In this document: piece by piece, positions 9,011 through 56,505 of the stretch | How positions within the stretch are numbered: position 1 is the stretch's first letter | How the letters are laid out: each line of letters begins with the position of its first letter | Source: Chlamydiota bacterium | GTDB lineage: Bacteria; Auribacterota; Tritonobacteria; UBA1439 | Assembly (NCBI GenBank): GCA_037133055.1 | Contig: JBAXOY010000001.1 | Span: 32,236-96,235, forward strand | DNA length: 64,000 bases | Direction: 5' to 3' | Translations under genes and position numbers: made by a program | Notes under the pieces: generated by a model | What the model was told of the DNA's origin: nothing | What the model saw: the letters and a program-made list of their open reading frames with translations, nothing else | The model's database searches: none

Positions 9011-10611
9011 GATGCCTGCCCCCCCCGATCCCACGGGACCGGCTGCCCCGTCATAAGGAGGCCGAGCATCTCGAGCGTCGCCTCGCCGCGCATCATGACC
9101 CTGCTCAATTTCCCGCGGTGCATCACCGCGAGCCTGTCGCTCAGGGCGCACACCTCGTCGAGATCCTCCGAGACGAGCAGCACCGCCGCCCCGTATTTCC
9201 GCATCGCGAGAAGGGCGCGGCGGATGCCCTCGGCGGCGCCGACGTCGAGACCCCTTGTCGGGTGGACCGCGAGGAGCGCGCGGGGGCTTGACGAAAGCTC
9301 GCGGGCAAGGATGATCTTCTGGAGGTTTCCCCCCGAGAGGAGTCTCACGGGGGCGCGAAGATCGGGAACAGCGATCCCGTAGCGCCTGATCAGCTCGCCC
9401 GCCCACTCCCCGGCCTCCCGCTCATCGAGGAGGATTCCCGAGGCGATCGGCGGTGAGTGGTAGCTCTTGAGGATCAGGTTGTCGACGGCGTCGAGCCCGG
9501 ACGCCGTGCCCACCCTGCTCCGGTCGCCGGGTATGCAGGCAAGGCCGCGGGCGATGATCTCCGAGGGCGACGCCCCCGCCATGTTTTTTCCGAGCAGCGC
9601 GTACCTCCCTCCCGAGGGCTTCCGCAGGCCCGTGAGCACCTCTTCGAGCTCCTTCTGCCCGTTTCCGGAGACGCCCGCGATTCCGAAGATCTCTCCCCCG
9701 CGGAGATCGAGGTCGACGCCGCGGAGCGCGGGGGCGCCGCGCGGGCCGGGCGCCATGAGACCCGTGAGCTCTATGACCGGCAGCCCCTCCGCCCTCACGG
9801 GCGCGGCGGCGGAAGCGGGCGCGCCCGCATGCCCGCGGAATGAAATGGGCAGCCCCCGAGATGCGCGCGCGGGCGTGAGCTCTCTCCCCACCATCAGGCG
9901 GGCGAGTTCGCGCTCGTGTGTCGCGGCGCGGTCAAGGACCGCGACGACCGTCCCTTTCCGGAGGACGGTGATGCGGTCCGATATCTCCATCACCTCGTCG
10001 AGCTTGTGCGAGATGAAGATGACCGCCCGGCCCTTCTGTGCAAACCCGCGCATCGTCTCGAAGAGCGCGCGGGTCTCGCCGGGCGCGAGCACCGCCGTCG
10101 GCTCGTCCAGTATGAGCACGCGCACCTGTCGGAGGAGCATCTTCACGATCTCGACGCGCTGCTGCTCGCCCACCGAGAGCTGCCAGACGGGGGCGCGCAG
10201 GTCCACCGCCAGGCCGTAGCGCCGCGCCACCCTCTCGACACGGTTTTCGATATCCCGCGCGCGGTAAAGGAACGGGAGCCCGGGCATCCCGAGCGCCGCG
10301 TTTTCGGCGACGGTGTGGCGGGGGATGAGCGTGCTGTGCTGATGCACCATCCCGACGCCGAGGGCGATGGCGTCGCGCGGGGAGCCGATCGCCGCGGGGC
10401 GTCCGTCGAGCCGGATCTCCCCCGCGTCGGGACGGTAGAGGCCGGCGAGGATGTTCATCAGGGTGGATTTGCCCGCCCCGTTCTCCCCGAGGAGGGCGTG
10501 GATCTCTCCGCGGCGGACATCGAAATCGACGCCGTCGTTGGCGACGACGACGGGGAAGCTCTTGCGGATGCCGCACATCCGCACCGCCGGCTCGTGTATC
10601 GTTTCGCTCAT
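9007..10611 (-). CDS. ABC transporter ATP-binding protein with duplicated NBDs (sugar/nucleoside type)
   Basis: Two Walker A/signature sets (GENGAGKST ... LSVGEQQRVEI; second NBD LSGGNLQK). ATG at 10611 (MSETIHE) preferred. Alternative GTG at 10656 has an AAGGAG that abuts the start codon. Confidence 0.8.
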   Translation of the reverse strand: MSETIHEPAVRMCGIRKSFPVVVANDGVDFDVRRGEIHALLGENGAGKSTLMNILAGLYRPDAGEIRLDGRPAAIGSPRDAIALGVGMVHQHSTLIPRHTVAENAALGMPGLPFLYRARDIENRVERVARRYGLAVDLRAPVWQLSVGEQQRVEIVKMLLRQVRVLILDEPTAVLAPGETRALFETMRGFAQKGRAVIFISHKLDEVMEISDRITVLRKGTVVAVLDRAATHERELARLMVGRELTPARASRGLPISFRGHAGAPASAAAPVRAEGLPVIELTGLMAPGPRGAPALRGVDLDLRGGEIFGIAGVSGNGQKELEEVLTGLRKPSGGRYALLGKNMAGASPSEIIARGLACIPGDRSRVGTASGLDAVDNLILKSYHSPPIASGILLDEREAGEWAGELIRRYGIAVPDLRAPVRLLSGGNLQKIILARELSSSPRALLAVHPTRGLDVGAAEGIRRALLAMRKYGAAVLLVSEDLDEVCALSDRLAVMHRGKLSRVMMRGEATLEMLGLLMTGQPVPWDRGGQAS

Positions 10612-10685
10612 GGAATTGGCGAGAGCGTCACCCGGCTCATTCCGTTGCGGTTGCACTCCTTGAGAGTATCATCCTTTTGAGATCT

Positions 10686-10699
10686 GGGATTTGGGATTT
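10686..10699. repeat. (GGGATTT)2 heptanucleotide tandem repeat (locus a)
   Basis: TGGGATTTGGGATTT lies between the SBP stop and the ATPase start of the minus-strand ABC operon. Overlaps the SBP stop codon. Confidence 0.8.
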
Positions 10700-11780
10700 A
10701 TTTCGGTATCCGCCCCTCGACCCCCTCCACGAAATAGCTCATGGTGTAGAGTTCGCGGTCCGTGGGGGCCTTCCCGTCGGGGATCGCCGTCTTCCCCTCC
10801 TGATCCCTGACCGGTCCCCGGAAGACCACGAGCTTCTTCTCCGCGATCTCCTTCTTCTTCTCCGTGACGAGCTTCTTCACCTCCTCCGGAACCATCGGGC
10901 CGAGAGGGGCGATGTCCACGATCCCCGTCTCGATCCCCCACCAGATCGGCTCGTTGCTCCACTTCCCCTCATGGAGATCGGTCGCGATCTTCGTGTAGAG
11001 AGGGACCCAGTTCCAGACGGCGGAGGTCAGGTGGGCCGTCGGGGCGAACCGGCTCATGTCGGTGTTGTACCCGATGCTCCAGACCCCGTGCTCCTGGGCG
11101 GCCTGCTGGGGGCCCGATGAGTCCTGGTGCTGGGCGATCACGTCGGCCCCGACCTCGATAAGGCTCTCCGCTGCCTCCTTCTCCTTTGCCGGGTCGAACC
11201 AGGTATAGGTCCAGACCACCCTGACCTTCGCCCTCGGGTTGACCGATCGGACCCCGAGGGTGAACGCGTTGATGCCGCGGATCACCTCGGGGATCGGGTG
11301 CGCGGCGACATAGCCGATGTCGTTCTTCTTCGTCATCTTCCCCGCGACGATCCCGGTGAGGTAGCGGGCCTGGTACATCCTCCCGAAATAGTTTGACATG
11401 TTGGCGGAGCGCTTCGATCCGGAACAGTGCATGAAGACGGTCTTCGGGTAGTTCTTCGCCGCCTCCTCGCACGGGTCCATGTAGCCGTAGCTCGTCGCGA
11501 AGATCAAATTGAATCCCATCTCCGCGAACTGGGTCATCACGCGCGTCGCGTCCGCCCCCTCCTTCACGTTCTCGACGAACCGGGTCTTCTTCACGAACGG
11601 GAGCTTCTCGATCGACTTCCTCCCCTCGTCGTGGGCCCAGTTCCACCCGGCGTCCCCGACCGGGGCGACGTAGACGAACCCGGCCCGTATCTCCTTCACC
11701 GGCTCGAACGCCCCCAGGGGCGTCCCGGCGCTCCACTGCCATGCGAAGAACGCGACCATGCCGGCGGCCGTCCTTTTCAT
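10698..11780 (-). CDS. BMP-family ABC transporter substrate-binding protein (Med/TmpC-like, purine nucleoside type)
   Basis: Signal peptide [19 protein letters not shown]. Family-typical motifs ([14 protein letters not shown]..., DVIAQHQDS). GGGAGG SD 5 nt upstream of the ATG at 11780. Confidence 0.8.
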
Positions 11781-11941
11781 CTGTTCCTCCCGAATATTTC
11801 GACTCCACGTGCCATCGACGGGAGAGTATAGCATCCGTTCCCTCGCCGCCTCCACCGCGATCTGCCGCAATTCGGGATCTGGCGCGATTTGCTGTGCGGG
11901 TCCACGATCCTAGCTCCGTCTCCACGGGGGCCTTCCGCTTC

Positions 11942-11980
11942 GGGGATTTTTTGGATTTGGGATTTGGGGTTTGGGATTTC
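11942..11980. repeat. Degenerate (GGGATTT)~5 tandem repeat (locus b) in divergent promoter region
   Basis: GGGGATTTTTTGGATTTGGGATTTGGGGTTTGGGATTT. Sits between the SBP start (11780, minus) and the BMC-H start (12080, plus). Confidence 0.8.
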
Positions 11981-12079
11981 CCATCCAGCACTCTCCCCTT
12001 GACCCCCTCCGCGGCGCTGTACTATGATGTGCCCCTGTTTCACATGCGCGCGGCGCACACATCAGCGGAGGATCACACA

Positions 12080-12370
12080 ATGGCCGAAGCACTGGGAATG
12101 ATCGAGACGCGCGGGTTTGCCGCCATGGTGGAGGCGTCGGACGCCATGGTGAAGGCGGCCAAGGTCGAGCTCGTGAGCTACGAGAAGATCGGCGGAGGGT
12201 ACGTCACGGCGATCGTCCGCGGCGATGTCGCGGCGGTGCGCGCGGCGGTGGAGGCCGGGGCGCGGGGCGCGGAGAAGGTGGGAGAGCTCGTCTCCGTCCA
12301 CGTGATACCGAGGCCGCACGTCAACGTGGACACGGTTTTGCCGCTCGGCCGTCCGCATCCGAAGGACTGA
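12080..12370 (+). CDS. Bacterial microcompartment shell hexamer protein (BMC-H; PduA/EutM/CcmK family)
   Basis: [60 protein letters not shown]...[10 protein letters not shown] is near-consensus for PF00936. GGAGGA SD 8 nt upstream. Confidence 0.88.
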
Positions 12371-12410
12371 TCCCGGCCATCCCCTTCTTTTTTCCGTGAA
12401 TCCTTGCCTT

Positions 12411-12440
12411 TTGGGATTTGGGATCTGGGATTTGGGATTT
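12411..12440. repeat. (GGGATTT)4 tandem repeat (locus c), intercistronic
   Basis: GGGATTTGGGATCTGGGATTTGGGATTT between BMC-H stop and BMC-P1 start. Four G3 tracts spaced by 4 nt. Confidence 0.85.
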
Positions 12441-12455
12441 ACCCCGGAGGGGTTC

Positions 12456-12767
12456 ATGCAGCTCGGCAGAGTGGTGGGTTCGGTCGTCTCGACCCGGAAG
12501 AGCGAGAACATCCAGGGGCTGAAGCTCCTCCTGGTCCAGCAGCTCTCCCACGGCGGGAGCGCTCTCAAGAACTACGTCATGGCGGTCGACGTGGTGCAGG
12601 CGGGGACCGGCGACGTGGTGCTCTACTCCGAGGGGAGCTCATGCCGGCAGACCGCCCAGACCGACAAGCGGCCCGTGGACGGGGTCGTCATGGCGATCGT
12701 CGACACGTGGGAAGTCGGAGGCAAAGAGGTCTATTCAAAGTCGCGCGAGGACGGCGCATCGAAATGA
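12456..12767 (+). CDS. BMC vertex pentamer protein (BMC-P; EutN/CcmL/PduN family), paralog 1
   Basis: MQLGRVVGSVVSTRKSENIQGLKLLLVQQ... matches PF03319 N-terminus. GGAGGGG SD 5 nt upstream. Confidence 0.8.
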   Translation: MQLGRVVGSVVSTRKSENIQGLKLLLVQQLSHGGSALKNYVMAVDVVQAGTGDVVLYSEGSSCRQTAQTDKRPVDGVVMAIVDTWEVGGKEVYSKSREDGASK

Positions 12768-13036
12768 AAATCGGGAAAGTAATCGGCACGGTGGTGGCGA
12801 CCCGGAAGGTGGAGTCGCTGAACGGCGTCAAGCTCCTCCTCGTCCAGCCGCTCGACGAAGACGGAAAGCCCGCGGGCGAGCCCGTCGTCGCCTGCGACAG
12901 CCAGCAGTCCGGCCCCGGGGAGACCGTCTTCTTCATCGGCGGCCGCGAGGCGTCGCTGCCCCTGCCGGAGCCTTTCAATCCCGCCGACGCGGCCATCACC
13001 GGGATCATCGACGCCGTGACAAAGGACGCCCCATGA
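12764..13036 (+). CDS. BMC vertex pentamer protein (BMC-P), paralog 2
   Basis: MKIGKVIGTVVATRKVESLNGVKLLLVQPL... ATGA start/stop overlap with paralog 1. Confidence 0.8.
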   Translation: MKIGKVIGTVVATRKVESLNGVKLLLVQPLDEDGKPAGEPVVACDSQQSGPGETVFFIGGREASLPLPEPFNPADAAITGIIDAVTKDAP

Positions 13037-13362
13037 AGATCGGCACCGTCATCGGCACGGTGGTGGCGACCCTGAAGCCCGAGGGGTTCAACGGCCGCAA
13101 GCTCCTCCTCGTCCGCCCCGAGGACCCGTACGGGAAGAAGACCGAGACCCCGGTGATTGCCGTGGACACGGTCTCTGCGGGGGAGGGCGACCGGGTGATC
13201 TTCGTGGACGAGGGGAACTCCGCGCGGCAGGTGCTGGACTGGAAGGACGGCTGCGTGCGCGCCGTCATCGTGGGCTACATCGACGAGATCGACATCCCAC
13301 GAAATCCCAAATCCCCGGATTCAAATCCCAAATCCCAAATCCCGAATCCCAAGAAGAAGTAG
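13033..13362 (+). CDS. BMC vertex pentamer protein (BMC-P), paralog 3, with repeat-encoded C-terminal tail
   Basis: MKIGTVIGTVVATLKPEGFNGRKLLLVRPED... ATGA overlap with paralog 2. Last ~21 aa (PRNPKSPDSNPKSQIPNPKKK) are encoded by the (AAATCCC)n repeat. Confidence 0.75.
   Translation: MKIGTVIGTVVATLKPEGFNGRKLLLVRPEDPYGKKTETPVIAVDTVSAGEGDRVIFVDEGNSARQVLDWKDGCVRAVIVGYIDEIDIPRNPKSPDSNPKSQIPNPKKK
13302..13352. repeat. (AAATCCC)~7 tandem repeat (locus d; reverse orientation of GGGATTT)
   Basis: AAATCCCAAATCCCCGGATTCAAATCCCAAATCCCAAATCCCGAATCCCAA. Inside the 3' end of BMC-P3. Confidence 0.85.
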
Positions 13363-13495
13363 GTTCCCGCTATGCCTCTTCTGTGACGCCAAGGGTGCCT
13401 TGCGTCGTCGGGATTTCGCTTCCGCTGATTGAGAAGACCCTCCAGGAGAGGGGACTGCCGGGGACCCGGATAGGAAGAGAAGGGTGTGTCTCTTT

Positions 13496-13522
13496 GATTT
13501 GGGATTTGGGATTTGGGATTTT
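13496..13522. repeat. (GGGATTT)~3.5 tandem repeat (locus e), inverted relative to locus d
   Basis: GATTTGGGATTTGGGATTTGGGATTTT. Overlaps the proS stop codon (minus strand). Confidence 0.85.
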
Positions 13523-15236
13523 ATTCCAGTGCCCGCCGCACCATCCCCGCGATCTCATCTGCGGCGCCCCCCATGTCGACGAGCCGCGCATCCTTCTCGC
13601 CCCGGACCTTCAGCTCAACCTTCCCCTGCGCGAGACCCTTCGGCCCGACGACGACCCTGAGCGGGATGCCGACGAGGTCGGCGTCCTTGAACTTCACCCC
13701 CGGCCGCTCGTCCCTGTCGTCGAGGAGCACCTCCACCCCCCGCACCTCGAGGGCGGCGCAGAGCTCCCCGGCGGCGCGTATCGTCGGCTCGTCCGTCACC
13801 TTCATCGCGATGATCTCGACGTGGTACGGCGCGATGGCCATCGGCCATATGATCCCGTCGGCGTCGTGGTGCTGCTCGATCGCGGCGGCGACGGTCCGTG
13901 TGACGCCGATGCCGTAGCAGCCCATGACGAACGGCTTCGCCGCCCCGTCCTCGTCCGAGAACGTCGCCCCCATCGACTCGCTGTACTTCCTGCCCAGCTT
14001 GAAGATCTGCCCGACCTCGATCCCGCGGTACGCCGTGAGCGGCGCGCCGCACCTCGGGCACCCGTCGCCCTCCCGGCTCACGGCGAGGTCGTGGTACTCC
14101 GCGGCGGTAAAATCGCGACCCTCGCTCACCCCCGCGAGGTGATGGTCGGTCCGGTTCGCCCCCGTGACGCCGTCCCGCATCCCCTTCACCGTGCGGTCGG
14201 CGATGACGAGGACCCCTTTGAGGCCGAGGGGCCCCGCGAAGCCGACCTCGGCCCCCGTGACTTTCCGGATCGCCGCCTCGTCGGCCAGCTCCAGCCCGGC
14301 GCGGCCGAGGGCCTTGCCGAGCTTCGGCTCGCTCACATCCCTGTCGCCGCGGATGAGCACCGCGACCGTCTCCTCCCCCGCGCGGTAGAGCAGCGTTTTG
14401 ATGAGCCGGTCCGGCGTCACGCCGAGGAACGCCGTCACCTCCTCGACCGTCTTCCTCCCCGGGGTGTGGACCTCGCGGAGCTCCGCCTCTTCGCGCTCCT
14501 CCGCAGGCGGCACCGCGCCGGTCGCCGTGTCGGTCGTCGCGGCGTAGCCGCAGGCCTCCGACGGGCACGAGATCACCACGGACTCTCCCGTCTCGGCGAG
14601 CACCATGAACTCGTGCGTGTCCTTCCCCCCCATGAGGCCGGGGTCGGCGAGCACCGCCCTGAAGGTGAGCCCGCACCGCCTGAAGATGCGGGAGTACACT
14701 TCGTGCATGCGCAGGTAGTACTCCTCGAGCGACGCTGCGTCCCGGTGGAATGAATAGGCGTCCTTCATCGTGAACTCTCTCCCGCGCATCACGCCGAAGC
14801 GCGGCCGCACCTCGTCCCGGAACTTGGTCTGTATCTGGTACAGGCAGAGCGGCAGCTCGCGGTAAGAGCGCACCTCGCCCCGCACCGTCGCGGTGATGAC
14901 CTCCTCGTGCGTGGGCCCGAGCGCGAACTCCCTGTCGTGCCGGTCCTTGAGGCGCATGAGCTCCTTGCCGTACTCGTCCCAGCGCCCGCTCTCGCGCCAG
15001 AGCTCCGCGGGGCTCAGGATGGGGAGGAGCAGCTCCTGCGCGCCCGCGCGGTCCATCTCCTCGCGCACGATGCGCTCGACCTTCCTGATGCTCCGCCACC
15101 CGAGCGGGAGGTAGGTGTAGACCCCCGCGCCGAGCTTCCGCATCATCCCCGCGCGAAGCATCAGCCTGTGGCTGGCGATCTCGGCGTCCGCGGGGCTCTC
15201 TTTCAATGTCGGTATGAATGCGTGTGTCCATTTCAT
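13521..15236 (-). CDS. proS: Proline--tRNA ligase
   Basis: Full-length class II aaRS with bacterial-type editing domain. Strong family similarity (MKWTHAFIPTLKE..., FTMKDAYSFH, GCYGIGVTR). Confidence 0.92.
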   Translation of the reverse strand: MKWTHAFIPTLKESPADAEIASHRLMLRAGMMRKLGAGVYTYLPLGWRSIRKVERIVREEMDRAGAQELLLPILSPAELWRESGRWDEYGKELMRLKDRHDREFALGPTHEEVITATVRGEVRSYRELPLCLYQIQTKFRDEVRPRFGVMRGREFTMKDAYSFHRDAASLEEYYLRMHEVYSRIFRRCGLTFRAVLADPGLMGGKDTHEFMVLAETGESVVISCPSEACGYAATTDTATGAVPPAEEREEAELREVHTPGRKTVEEVTAFLGVTPDRLIKTLLYRAGEETVAVLIRGDRDVSEPKLGKALGRAGLELADEAAIRKVTGAEVGFAGPLGLKGVLVIADRTVKGMRDGVTGANRTDHHLAGVSEGRDFTAAEYHDLAVSREGDGCPRCGAPLTAYRGIEVGQIFKLGRKYSESMGATFSDEDGAAKPFVMGCYGIGVTRTVAAAIEQHHDADGIIWPMAIAPYHVEIIAMKVTDEPTIRAAGELCAALEVRGVEVLLDDRDERPGVKFKDADLVGIPLRVVVGPKGLAQGKVELKVRGEKDARLVDMGGAADEIAGMVRRALE

Positions 15237-55767: not shown

Positions 55768-55847
55768 GGGGACGGGTCTTCCCGGGAGGGGAGCTGAAAA
55801 ACCCCGCGCGGATCACTATCGGATGCACGGCAGGGAGGGTGTACACC

Positions 55848-56405
55848 ATGGCGAACGCAGTCGATCTCAGAAGGGGGGTGGCGATCCTGTACCAGGGAGC
55901 GCCGCATGTCATCACCGAGTACCAGCACGTCACGCCGGGAAACTGGCGCGCCTACGTGCAGGTTTCGATGCGCAATGTGAAGACGGGAAACTCGACGCAG
56001 GCGCGGTTCAGGACATCGGAGACCGTGGAGCTTGTCGATCTCGAGAGCCGCAAACTCCAGTACCAGTACCGCGACGGGGACGGCTACAACTTCATGAATC
56101 TCGAGGATTTCAGCACCGTCGTCCTTTCCCCCGCCGTCGTCGGCGAGGCCGCGCGGTATTTCAAGGAGGGCGACGAGATCAAGGGCCTCTTCCACGGCGA
56201 GGAGCCGATAGAGCTCGAACTCCCCACGAGCGTGGTGCTGAAGGTGGTGACGACCACGCCCGGCTTCAAGGGGGACTCGGTCAACAATCTTCAAAAGCCG
56301 GCGACGCTCGAGACGGGGTACGAGCTGAACGTGCCGCTCTTCATCAAGGAGGGGGAGATGGTCAAGGTGGACACGCGGACCGGGGGGTATCTGGGGAGGG
56401 AGTGA
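55848..56405 (+). CDS. efp: Elongation factor P
   Basis: Full-length three-domain EF-P similarity. GGGAGGG SD 7 nt upstream. Loop tip reads TPGNW rather than KPGKG. Confidence 0.85.
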   Translation: MANAVDLRRGVAILYQGAPHVITEYQHVTPGNWRAYVQVSMRNVKTGNSTQARFRTSETVELVDLESRKLQYQYRDGDGYNFMNLEDFSTVVLSPAVVGEAARYFKEGDEIKGLFHGEEPIELELPTSVVLKVVTTTPGFKGDSVNNLQKPATLETGYELNVPLFIKEGEMVKVDTRTGGYLGRE

Positions 56406-56407
56406 TT

Positions 56408-56433
56408 CAAATCCCAAAACCCAAATCCCAAAA
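56408..56433. repeat. (AAATCCC)~3 tandem repeat (locus f)
   Basis: CAAATCCCAAAACCCAAATCCCAAAAG. Begins 3 nt after the efp stop. Confidence 0.8.
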
Positions 56434-56505
56434 GAGGCTAAAAAGAACGGGGCCGTATGCACGTGGATGGCGCGCATGCGGCCCCGGATGCTTTTGAGCC
56501 CCTGT

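Follow-up and report, generated by a model that had tools for sequence, protein, structure and literature searches.

A dispersed heptanucleotide microsatellite as the probable source of the C-terminal tail of a predicted microcompartment vertex protein

The 3' end of a gene for a bacterial microcompartment (BMC) shell protein runs through a seven-nucleotide repeat in a 64-kb stretch of DNA (assembly GCA_037133055.1, contig JBAXOY010000001.1, positions 32,236 to 96,235; hereafter the window, in which all positions are counted unless a related locus is named). This raises the question of whether the repeat makes the C-terminus of the protein switchable, or whether the tail that it encodes has another origin. 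The gene concerned, P3, is the third BMC-P (EutN/CcmL) gene of a small shell operon, and a first-pass annotation made from the sequence had described its end as prone to slippage and as resembling a phase-variable tail. The explanation that we favor, with moderate confidence, is that the P3 tail arises from translation of the margin of a dispersed AAATCCC microsatellite, specific to the lineage, which the 3' end of the gene overlaps. The features that define this end are the following.

13033–13362, plus strand: P3, third BMC-P (EutN/CcmL) gene, 109 amino acids, TAG stop included in the coordinates (open reading frame list, Pfam PF03319, PDB relatives)
13033–13296, plus strand: part coding for the BMC-P fold, residues 1–88 (Pfam, PDB alignments, AlphaFold2; highly conserved in 42 orthologs)
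13297–13359, plus strand: part coding for the tail, PRNPKSPDSNPKSQIPNPKKK, predicted to be disordered (translation, AlphaFold2; hypervariable among orthologs)
13302–13350, plus strand: imperfect (AAATCCC)7 array (Tandem Repeats Finder, pattern search, register print)
13351–13362, plus strand: non-repeat exit AAGAAGAAGTAG, KKK and stop; a similar Lys/Arg-Lys-stop exit is retained in close relatives

The repeat-encoded tail and the AAATCCC array family

The translation of P3 yields 109 residues that end in ...VIVGYIDEIDIPRNPKSPDSNPKSQIPNPKKK*, according to both the open reading frame (ORF) list and direct translation. Pfam EutN_CcmL (PF03319) covers residues 1–84 and all of the profile (positions 1–83 of 83, E=8.6e-24), with a score of 84.3 bits for a gathering cutoff of 25. 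Solved BMC-P structures (5V74, 4I7A, 2HD3 and 2QW7; E = 7.5e-11 to 2.2e-8) align with residues 1–88, and among them 5V74, the BMC-P of Haliangium ochraceum (HO), covers exactly this part. An AlphaFold2 (AF2) model, built from an alignment of 42 orthologs, indeed contained a confident beta-barrel core with a predicted local distance difference test (pLDDT) score of about 84–97 (96, 84, 95, 88, 97, 97, 91, 90 and 89 for successive 10-residue blocks) and gave residues 94–109 a pLDDT below 50. By profile, structural homologs and synteny, P3 is a BMC-P shell vertex protein, and pentamer formation is predicted. The first-pass annotation had placed the end of the fold at about ...VIVGYIDEIDI and had described the 21 residues that follow (89–109) as a Lys/Pro-rich, probably disordered tail; this agrees with the Pfam and PDB boundaries, with the translation and with the AF2 scores.

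Past the fold, Tandem Repeats Finder (TRF) reported a repeat at 13302–13352 with a period of 7, 7.3 copies, 73% matches and the consensus AAATCCC. This array starts after residue 89 of 109. In register, its seven units read AAATCCC, AAATCCC, CGGATTC, AAATCCC, AAATCCC, AAATCCC and GAATCCC, two of them being degenerate, and the longest perfect run comprises three units (13323–13343). The tail and its TAG stop had both been attributed to the repeat: residues 89–109 do lie on the array, but the final KKK and the TAG (AAGAAGAAGTAG, 13351–13362) are non-repeat sequence. It had also been proposed that one unit more or fewer would shift the frame at the exit of the array and so alter the tail length and the stop. 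Simulation bore this out, since removal of one unit gave a product of 130 amino acids and addition of one unit a read-through of 575, with about 466 extra residues encoded antisense to proS, the convergent prolyl-tRNA synthetase gene. A change of three units in either direction preserved the frame and the KKK-stop exit, and every simulated frame retained the full BMC-P domain. The frame entered by the one-unit gain contains a 456-aa ORF antisense to proS (13383–14753, plus strand), a shadow ORF of the kind usual in high-GC DNA and not a gene.

The array is real, but it is not a trait of this gene alone: the window contains five further arrays built from this heptamer. They are listed below with proS.

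10676–10699, minus strand: array over the stop of a Bmp-family ABC substrate-binding lipoprotein gene, CCG AAA TAA ATCCCAAATCCC
11949–11979, minus strand: array in the divergent region ahead of BMC-H; a promoter-like TTGACC-18-TATGAT (11999–12028) follows 20 nt downstream
12410–12440, minus strand: array in the spacer between BMC-H and P1, (GGGATTT)4 in the operon sense, separated by 42 nt from the BMC-H stop and by 15 nt from the P1 start
13494–13521, minus strand: inverted partner array, (AAATCCC)~4, which begins right after the proS stop TAA, GAA TAA AATCCCAAATCCCAAATCCCAAATC
13521–15236, minus strand: prolyl-tRNA synthetase gene proS, convergent with P3 (Pfam tRNA-synt_2b, tRNA_edit, HGTP_anticodon)
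56408–56433, plus strand: array 3 nt past the stop of efp (elongation factor P, 55839–56405; Pfam EFP_N, EFP, Elong-fact-P_C), TGA TTC AAATCCC...

Dimers of the heptamer with at most two mismatches occur 17 times in the window, compared with 0.26 expected from shuffled sequences, and this enrichment is therefore not due to chance. Barring one 73%-match TCAGGAG array, AAATCCC is the only heptamer that TRF found with at least three copies in the window. Five of the six arrays are intergenic, four are at a stop codon and five are packed into 3 kb around the shell operon. Related loci of 8–20 kb carry two to seven AAATCCC arrays each, both at orthologous and at other positions (L004, L006, L008 and L136). 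AAATCCC thus displays what defines a dispersed microsatellite, with many loci above chance, a mainly intergenic location at gene ends and a copy number that varies among relatives.

The orientation of these arrays is also regular. The four that lie at stops in the window have their C-rich strand in the sense of the gene (the Bmp-family lipoprotein gene, proS, efp and P3), and the two others (11949–11979 and 12410–12440) are G-rich in the sense of the shell operon. When five related loci plus efp were considered, all arrays that overlap a called stop or lie no more than 5 nt after it were C-rich in gene sense, in seven of seven independent genes (Bmp, P3, proS, HisG, a glycosyltransferase, DUF1571 and efp), and none was G-rich. 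The sites include window 10676–10699, 13494–13521 and 56408–56433, L004 19502–19522, and L008 7701–7753 and 14900–14971. This stop-proximal, C-rich-in-sense placement within the lineage is the most interesting loose end of the present work: a lineage-specific heptamer family that is stop-proximal and strand-biased is a candidate terminator or 3' untranslated region element.

Read from the sequence, the AAATCCC unit is free of stops in all six frames (KSQIPNP on one strand, GIWDLGF on the other). This accounts for the many spurious ORFs of the window that encode such peptides, and it is also why a genuine gene without a stop ahead of an array gains a tail. P3 is indeed not the only such gene. 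In relatives, proS extends into its array and gains the same NPKSQIPNPK tail, in the forms ...LNPKSQIPNPKRS, ...LNPKK and ...LNPKSS...QIPSPR*; the proS product ends in ...ERLNPKSQIPNPKRS in L014 (read-through at 1020–1095), in ...KLNPKSSLDPERGLGTRTPEEQIPSPR in L004 (11173–11260) and in ...ERLNPKK* in L008 (10311–10330). In the window, proS ends in ...RRALE*, with its TAA immediately ahead of the array (GAA TAA AATCCCAAATCCC...), and a single base decides on the presence of the tail, TAA at 13521–13523 versus TTA in the relatives. In L008, the end of a glycosyltransferase falls within an array, and another array is found 5 nt past the stop of the convergent DUF1571 gene. The occurrence of NPKSQIP tails on unrelated genes therefore argues for a property of the repeat family and not for an adaptation of the vertex protein. 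It also offers a clean natural case in which a stop-free microsatellite adds disordered tails to a shell pentamer, a prolyl-tRNA synthetase and a glycosyltransferase. As for the peptide itself, a search with (NPKSQIP)6 returned only orphan ORFs of 40–74 aa, without a Pfam domain in all cases but one weak match (E = 0.4), and KSQIPNP was rejected as a recognized protein motif.

The comparison of P3 orthologs points in the same direction. Their cores are 75–92% identical, and their C-termini are hypervariable to the point of being unalignable. Some tails derive from the repeat (NPKSQIPNPNKK, NPKSQGSKSQIPNPK, ...ENPKSQIPNPNKK and ...YKNPKSQGSKSQIPNPK, plus a 117-aa form with more units), others are basic and non-repeat (PAAPKARTPRPARK, PKDTRKKSKA and PGKSESTKHKSQDAKKRG), and others are nearly absent (AKKK, SKK, V); an 89-aa, tail-less allele is present on 14 contigs. 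At the DNA level, L013 (about 94% identical) has four perfect units where the window has seven, an exact 21-nt, three-unit, in-frame indel, and it retains an exit of the KKK-stop type (AAAAAGAAGTAA). L015 has four decayed units followed by the exit GGAAAGAAGTAG. The flanks of L016 are 94.5–97.8% identical to the window DNA, its array has decayed to PSNPPSKADTSRASHHRKK and its exit reads AGGAAAAAGTAG; the exit of L014 is AACAAGAAATAA. In L006 the P3 stop is formed directly by AAATAA after the array, and in L008 there is no P3 array. The P3 tail is hypervariable and dispensable. The check on repeat number in related strains that the first-pass annotation proposed did reveal variation, four units in L013 versus seven in the window. 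As regards the conserved, non-repeat ortholog C-terminus that it named as part of a refutation, some orthologs have non-repeat tails or none, and their ends are hypervariable.

The tail-less allele goes with an insertion. In L136 (and also in L137 and L138), some 3.6 kb of low-GC DNA lie as an island exactly at the junction between core and array (L136 4255–7900), between P3 and proS, and comprise an AbiEii toxin, a partner ORF and an AAA_14/DUF4143 ATPase; the insertion leaves the 89-aa P3 that is present on 14 contigs. The proS-side array is kept in the island-bearing L136 and the P3 array is lost. Arrays of this type may be insertion hot spots.

Taken together as a course of events, short (AAATCCC)n arrays of about 2–7 units occupy short spacers and the 3' ends of genes in Auribacterota-like bacteria, and a gene with a lost or displaced stop reads through such a stop-free array to the first stop beyond it. 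For P3 this is the TAG, which lies 9 nt downstream of the array. The tail so acquired is basic, predicted to be disordered, weakly constrained and dispensable, and the peptide would be close to neutral. Over evolutionary time it would change through gain and loss of units, point decay and wholesale replacement, and not through a rapid, reversible switch. At the same time, the P3 array and the inverted array past the convergent proS stop would pair as a long hairpin that ends or stabilizes both transcripts.

ORF ends encoded by a simple sequence repeat (SSR) and dispersed heptamer arrays are both of kinds already known. Cyanobacterial short tandemly repeated repetitive (STRR) heptamers are another dispersed heptamer family. 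Dispersed intergenic heptamer arrays have also been described with the unit TAACTGA in marine Beggiatoaceae, Cyanobacteria and Bacteroidetes (PMC4679880), and the part of that study which draws on earlier work presents heptanucleotide repeats as the most frequent type of long SSR in many bacteria, with amplification of particular heptamers in particular lineages (PMC4679880; Mrazek 2007 as cited there). As with AAATCCC, a single heptamer forms many short TAACTGA arrays (2–6 copies) in spacers by gene ends, with a patchy distribution across phyla and an occasional ORF overlap (PMC4679880). The two families nevertheless differ in unit and in lineage. TAACTGA is mainly found just upstream of start codons (PMC4679880), whereas AAATCCC is mainly found at or after stops, C-rich in sense; and TAACTGA contains the stops TAA and TGA, which precludes read-through, whereas AAATCCC is open in six frames.

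A predicted hairpin between P3 and proS

The P3 array and its inverted partner past the proS stop are complementary, and RNA folding predicted the following structure.

13323–13521, no strand assigned: predicted long hairpin in which the P3-tail array pairs with the proS-side array, with a stem of about 26–28 bp that encloses about 143 nt, the P3 stop being in the loop

Its arms are located at 13323–13350 and 13494–13521, with a predicted dG of about -97 kcal/mol and z = -3.3 on both strands, and the 3' arm is followed by UUUUAUU (TTTTATT) on the plus strand. Equivalent hairpins were predicted in L014 (z = -9.5), L015 (z = -4.1) and L013 (z = -2.6). A similar arrangement occurs on an unrelated metagenome contig (L012, 2080–2215), with a stop, (AAATCCC)8, a 35-nt loop, (GGGATTT)5 and the ribosome-binding site of the next gene in succession. 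Most likely, the P3/proS hairpin would serve as a bidirectional transcription terminator or as a 3'-end stabilizer for both genes.

Inverted-repeat hairpins between convergent genes are well known as bidirectional intrinsic terminators and as elements of the repetitive extragenic palindrome (REP) and bacterial interspersed mosaic element (BIME) type. The P3/proS hairpin is like them in having complementary arms between convergent stops and a fold predicted on both strands. Unlike them, it has microsatellite arms, one of which is translated, and a loop of about 143 nt; its minus strand is without a clear U-run, and some relatives are without the hairpin. A search of Rfam with permissive thresholds over 10400–13800 gave no match.

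Several observations weigh against the account given above, in its transcriptional part and in the near-neutrality that it grants to the tail. The hairpin is missing in L006 and L016, and L008 has a short local pairing no better than shuffled sequences (z = +1.4). A consensus terminator scan did not call the P3/proS hairpin, the loop of which is far above 8 nt, and no U-run follows its 3' arm on the minus strand. The efp array is followed by a GC hairpin of its own, GGGGCCG...CGGCCCC with GCTTTTGAG (56434–56500), conventional and terminator-like in appearance; with a separate terminator-like hairpin at efp, the arrays are therefore not terminators everywhere. On the protein side, the P3 3'-end array persists across lineages with only about 80% protein identity, and the Lys/Arg-Lys-stop exit is likewise retained, also next to a decayed array (L016); this persistence of array and exit could reflect selection on a basic, outward peptide and not neutrality. 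Minority slippage variants within populations are possible, since assemblies report the majority allele only, and the other tail exits, known as protein in P0129, P0139 and P0140, could include frame-shifted alleles.

Two other roles at the nucleic acid level were considered for the arrays and set aside. A G-quadruplex formed by (GGGATTT)4 needs four tracts, a number not consistently reached by arrays that hold 2, 3, 3, 4 and 6–7 G/C tracts. A Rho utilization (rut) site, suggested by arrays that are C-rich and free of G in sense past stops, found no support in 120 arrays from other phyla, which lack an orientation bias (33 C-rich in sense, 35 G-rich in sense); the bias is confined to the seven genes of this lineage.

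Other readings of the tail

The alternative that survives best is that of a selected basic extension. P3 would need a short, disordered and positively charged whisker outside the vertex, for instance to contact nucleic acid, membrane or partners, and the array would be a convenient way to encode it (NPK, KKK). Nearly all orthologs, repeat-bearing or not, do add 3–30 residues among which K, R, P, A and S abound, and most of these tails are basic, with KK, RK or KR as the final pair; moreover, clusters 1 and 2 retain the KK-stop exit and its frame, also in members with a decayed array. An outward position is in line with work on HO BMC-P, in which a C-terminal Strep tag pulls down assembled shells (PMC10853475; PMC6056538) and is accessible on them (PMC10853475). 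The Strep-II tag used there for CAP purification, of about 10 residues, is tolerated and accessible from outside, much as is supposed for the P3 tail (PMC6056538; PMC10853475), with the difference that the HO extension is engineered and that of P3 is natural and repeat-encoded. Because a C-terminal BMC-P tag captures assembled shells, the P3 tail is probably outward and tolerated, and by this analogy the projection from the shell vertex proposed by the first-pass annotation is plausible. However, alleles with no tail or hardly any are common (the 89-aa form on 14 contigs, ...NLV, ...ALRQ), and tails differ widely in sequence, length and charge. The proS product of relatives, for which no such role is conceivable, bears this peptide too, and a basic bias is expected from the translation of A-rich repeat and spacer DNA. 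The basic ends may stem from weak selection or simply from DNA composition. Overall, selection for a basic whisker is a possibility that we take seriously but consider unlikely. BMC-P appears to tolerate natural C-terminal extensions of 0–30 residues, a point of use for engineering shells by means of C-terminal tags.

A second alternative shifts the function to the RNA. Complementary arrays within the shell operon transcript would pair over a long range and set the ratio of BMC-H to BMC-P, the spacer (GGGAUUU)4 pairing with the P3 (AAAUCCC)7, or the P3 array with the G-rich array downstream, and the coding of a tail would be incidental. The concentration of five of six arrays around the shell operon and the strong predicted pairing of complementary arrays speak for such a regulon, as do the conservation of the spacer array in L004 and L136 and the presence in L013 of GC-rich hairpins, which suggest that a structured element is wanted at this place. 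Yet the Rfam search found no family, the spacer array of L136 persists without a P3 array, and arrays also occur at unrelated genes; outside the lineage, the heptamer is no commoner in viral contigs than control heptamers (see below). We hold an RNA-level regulon to be improbable. A combined version, in which the arrays of Auribacterota-like bacteria are functional 3'-end and spacer RNA elements that tune BMC-H versus the three BMC-P proteins and donate NPKSQIP-type tails, one of which was co-opted as an outward vertex whisker, also seems distinctly unlikely to us.

The spacer between BMC-H and P1 deserves a description of its own. Its array is common to the window, L004 and L136. In L013 (1565–1695, corresponding to window 12371–12455), two GC-rich hairpins, GTCCCGCC..GGCGGGAC and GCCCCGCC..GGCGGGGC, replace the array, and a conserved ACCCCGGAGGGGTT-ATG ribosome-binding region lies downstream of both versions. 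Speculatively, this spacer may act as an attenuator that lowers the expression of pentamers relative to hexamers.

The heptamer is not restricted to the lineage. (AAATCCC)3 was found in at least 119 bacterial genome stretches from many phyla (L017–L135), the carriers including Acidobacteriota, Planctomycetota, Verrucomicrobiota, Cyanobacteria, Bacteroidota, Xanthomonas and Desulfonema. In these 119 loci, 27–29% of arrays are close to a stop that ends an ORF of 100 aa or more, versus 18% of random positions, and inverted pairs within 400 nt have the C-rich arm first in 13 loci and the reverse order in 5. In viral contigs, (AAATCCC)3 occurred at 10 loci, compared with 16 and 11 for two composition-matched control heptamers. 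Because such controls are as common, the occurrence in many phyla probably reflects convergent SSR formation; a conserved multi-phylum element, which was considered as well, is unsupported for the same reason. A scan of metagenome contigs with the P3 protein gave, among the matches listed, two distant BMC-P loci and the unrelated repeat locus L012, and a literature search for the repeat dimer returned no relevant paper.

Phase variation was the reading initially proposed: slipped-strand mispairing would rapidly and reversibly switch the C-terminal tails of P3 and so diversify the shell surface within a population. Seven is indeed coprime to three, so that unit changes alter the exit frame, the unit number does differ between relatives (7 versus 4), tails are hypervariable, and a coding heptanucleotide switch has a precedent in neuO, the O-acetyltransferase gene of the E. 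coli K1 phage CUS-3 (PMC13001214). Like the P3 array, the (AAGACTC)n tract of neuO is a coding heptamer read as a 7-residue period through three frames, in which a change of one unit moves the frame and a change by multiples of three does not (PMC13001214). Unlike that of P3, it is located at the 5' end, where two of three frames abolish the enzyme, and it comprises 3–53 perfect copies, most commonly 20; in 65.6% of genomes it is out of frame (PMC13001214). The heptamer tracts of the hmw promoters contain 13–38 copies, and three units are the most permissive detection threshold for heptamers in H. influenzae (PMC2651432). The P3 tract, by contrast, is interrupted, with three consecutive perfect units versus the 13–53 of known heptamer switches, and it is neither 5' coding nor in a promoter, but 3'-terminal and past a fold that stays intact in every frame. 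A one-unit gain would add some 466 junk residues, an implausible selected state.

The tract also appeared to be stable at short range, although this limited evidence comes from only 3–4 contigs of this allele and from assemblies, which give the majority allele. An identical 109-aa P3 is present on contigs from three different samples, and the unit number is the same in three independent assemblies (99.9–100% identical), two of which were compared as DNA: L002 differs from the window by two single-nucleotide polymorphisms and no gap over 1882 nt that span five arrays, with equal unit numbers, and L003 is 100% identical to the window over 909 nt. Eight simulated slippage alleles, with one, two or three units added to or removed from either perfect run (102, 116, 130, 137, 568 and 575 aa), had no exact match among about 15 billion proteins. 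The sole length change verified on DNA, that between the window and L013, is an in-frame 21-nt step, and no out-of-frame allele was thus found among very close relatives, at 99.9–100% or at about 94% identity. In comparison with the heterogeneity measured within cultures for neuO, P3 has at most 3–4 perfect units, fixed in three assemblies. The same arrays also accompany the housekeeping genes proS and efp, and in a lineage of free-living environmental anaerobes there is no obvious selective agent for surface diversification of an internal structure. A slippage-prone, phase-variable 3' end thus finds no support in the short perfect run, the 3' position and the stability in three assemblies, and we judge programmed phase variation of P3 to be very improbable. 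Had it been true, P3 would have been the first phase-variable shell protein of a bacterial microcompartment, and this in a free-living candidate phylum; the evidence opposes it and calls for caution against over-reading repeat-encoded ORF ends in metagenome-assembled genomes.

Ribosomal frameshifting by -1 at an in-frame C_CCA_AAU was also considered and rejected, as its product would be the same 575-aa read-through antisense to proS as that of a one-unit gain, an implausible design.

Finally, an assembly or annotation artifact, with a repeat number or ORF end created by short-read assembly and a true gene that stops at the end of the fold, is extremely improbable: the sequence does come from a metagenome-assembled genome, in which repeats may be assembled wrongly, but the array, at 49 nt, is below read length, three independent assemblies agree, no stop codon lies between residue 88 and position 13360, and relatives display the same architecture.

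The shell operon and its lineage

P3 closes a short operon of four shell genes (12080–13362), in which it stands with a BMC-H (PF00936) and two other BMC-P genes.

12080–13036, plus strand: rest of the satellite shell operon, with BMC-H at 12080–12370, BMC-P1 at 12456–12767 and BMC-P2 at 12764–13036 (Pfam, tblastn)

The synteny of BMC-H, P1, P2 and P3 is also found in L004, L008, L013 and L136, and this order, followed by the convergent proS and BKACE, is kept in related loci. P1 and P2 (12764–12767), and likewise P2 and P3 (13033–13036), share 4 nt, ATGA, and these overlaps suggest translational coupling of the three pentamer paralogues. A tblastn search found no other shell gene within the 64-kb window. 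The operon is of the satellite type, with neither enzymes nor further shell genes within 64 kb. Upstream of it, the array at 11949–11979 and the promoter-like stretch are shared by L013, in which the sequence from the array to the BMC-H start (11949–12083) is highly conserved and the sequence upstream of the array is not.

BMCs have already been reported for the phylum Auribacterota (PMC9324843), and the nearest relatives of P3 carry the label Candidatus Aureabacteria/Auribacterota. The window was matched to contig CAYPDH010000002.1 of the metagenome-assembled genome GCA_964409435.1. The NCBI label of the protein from the source metagenome-assembled genome, MEI6632221.1, is 'Chlamydiota bacterium', whereas all of its close relatives are Candidatus Aureabacteria/Auribacterota, and this taxonomic label is probably imprecise.

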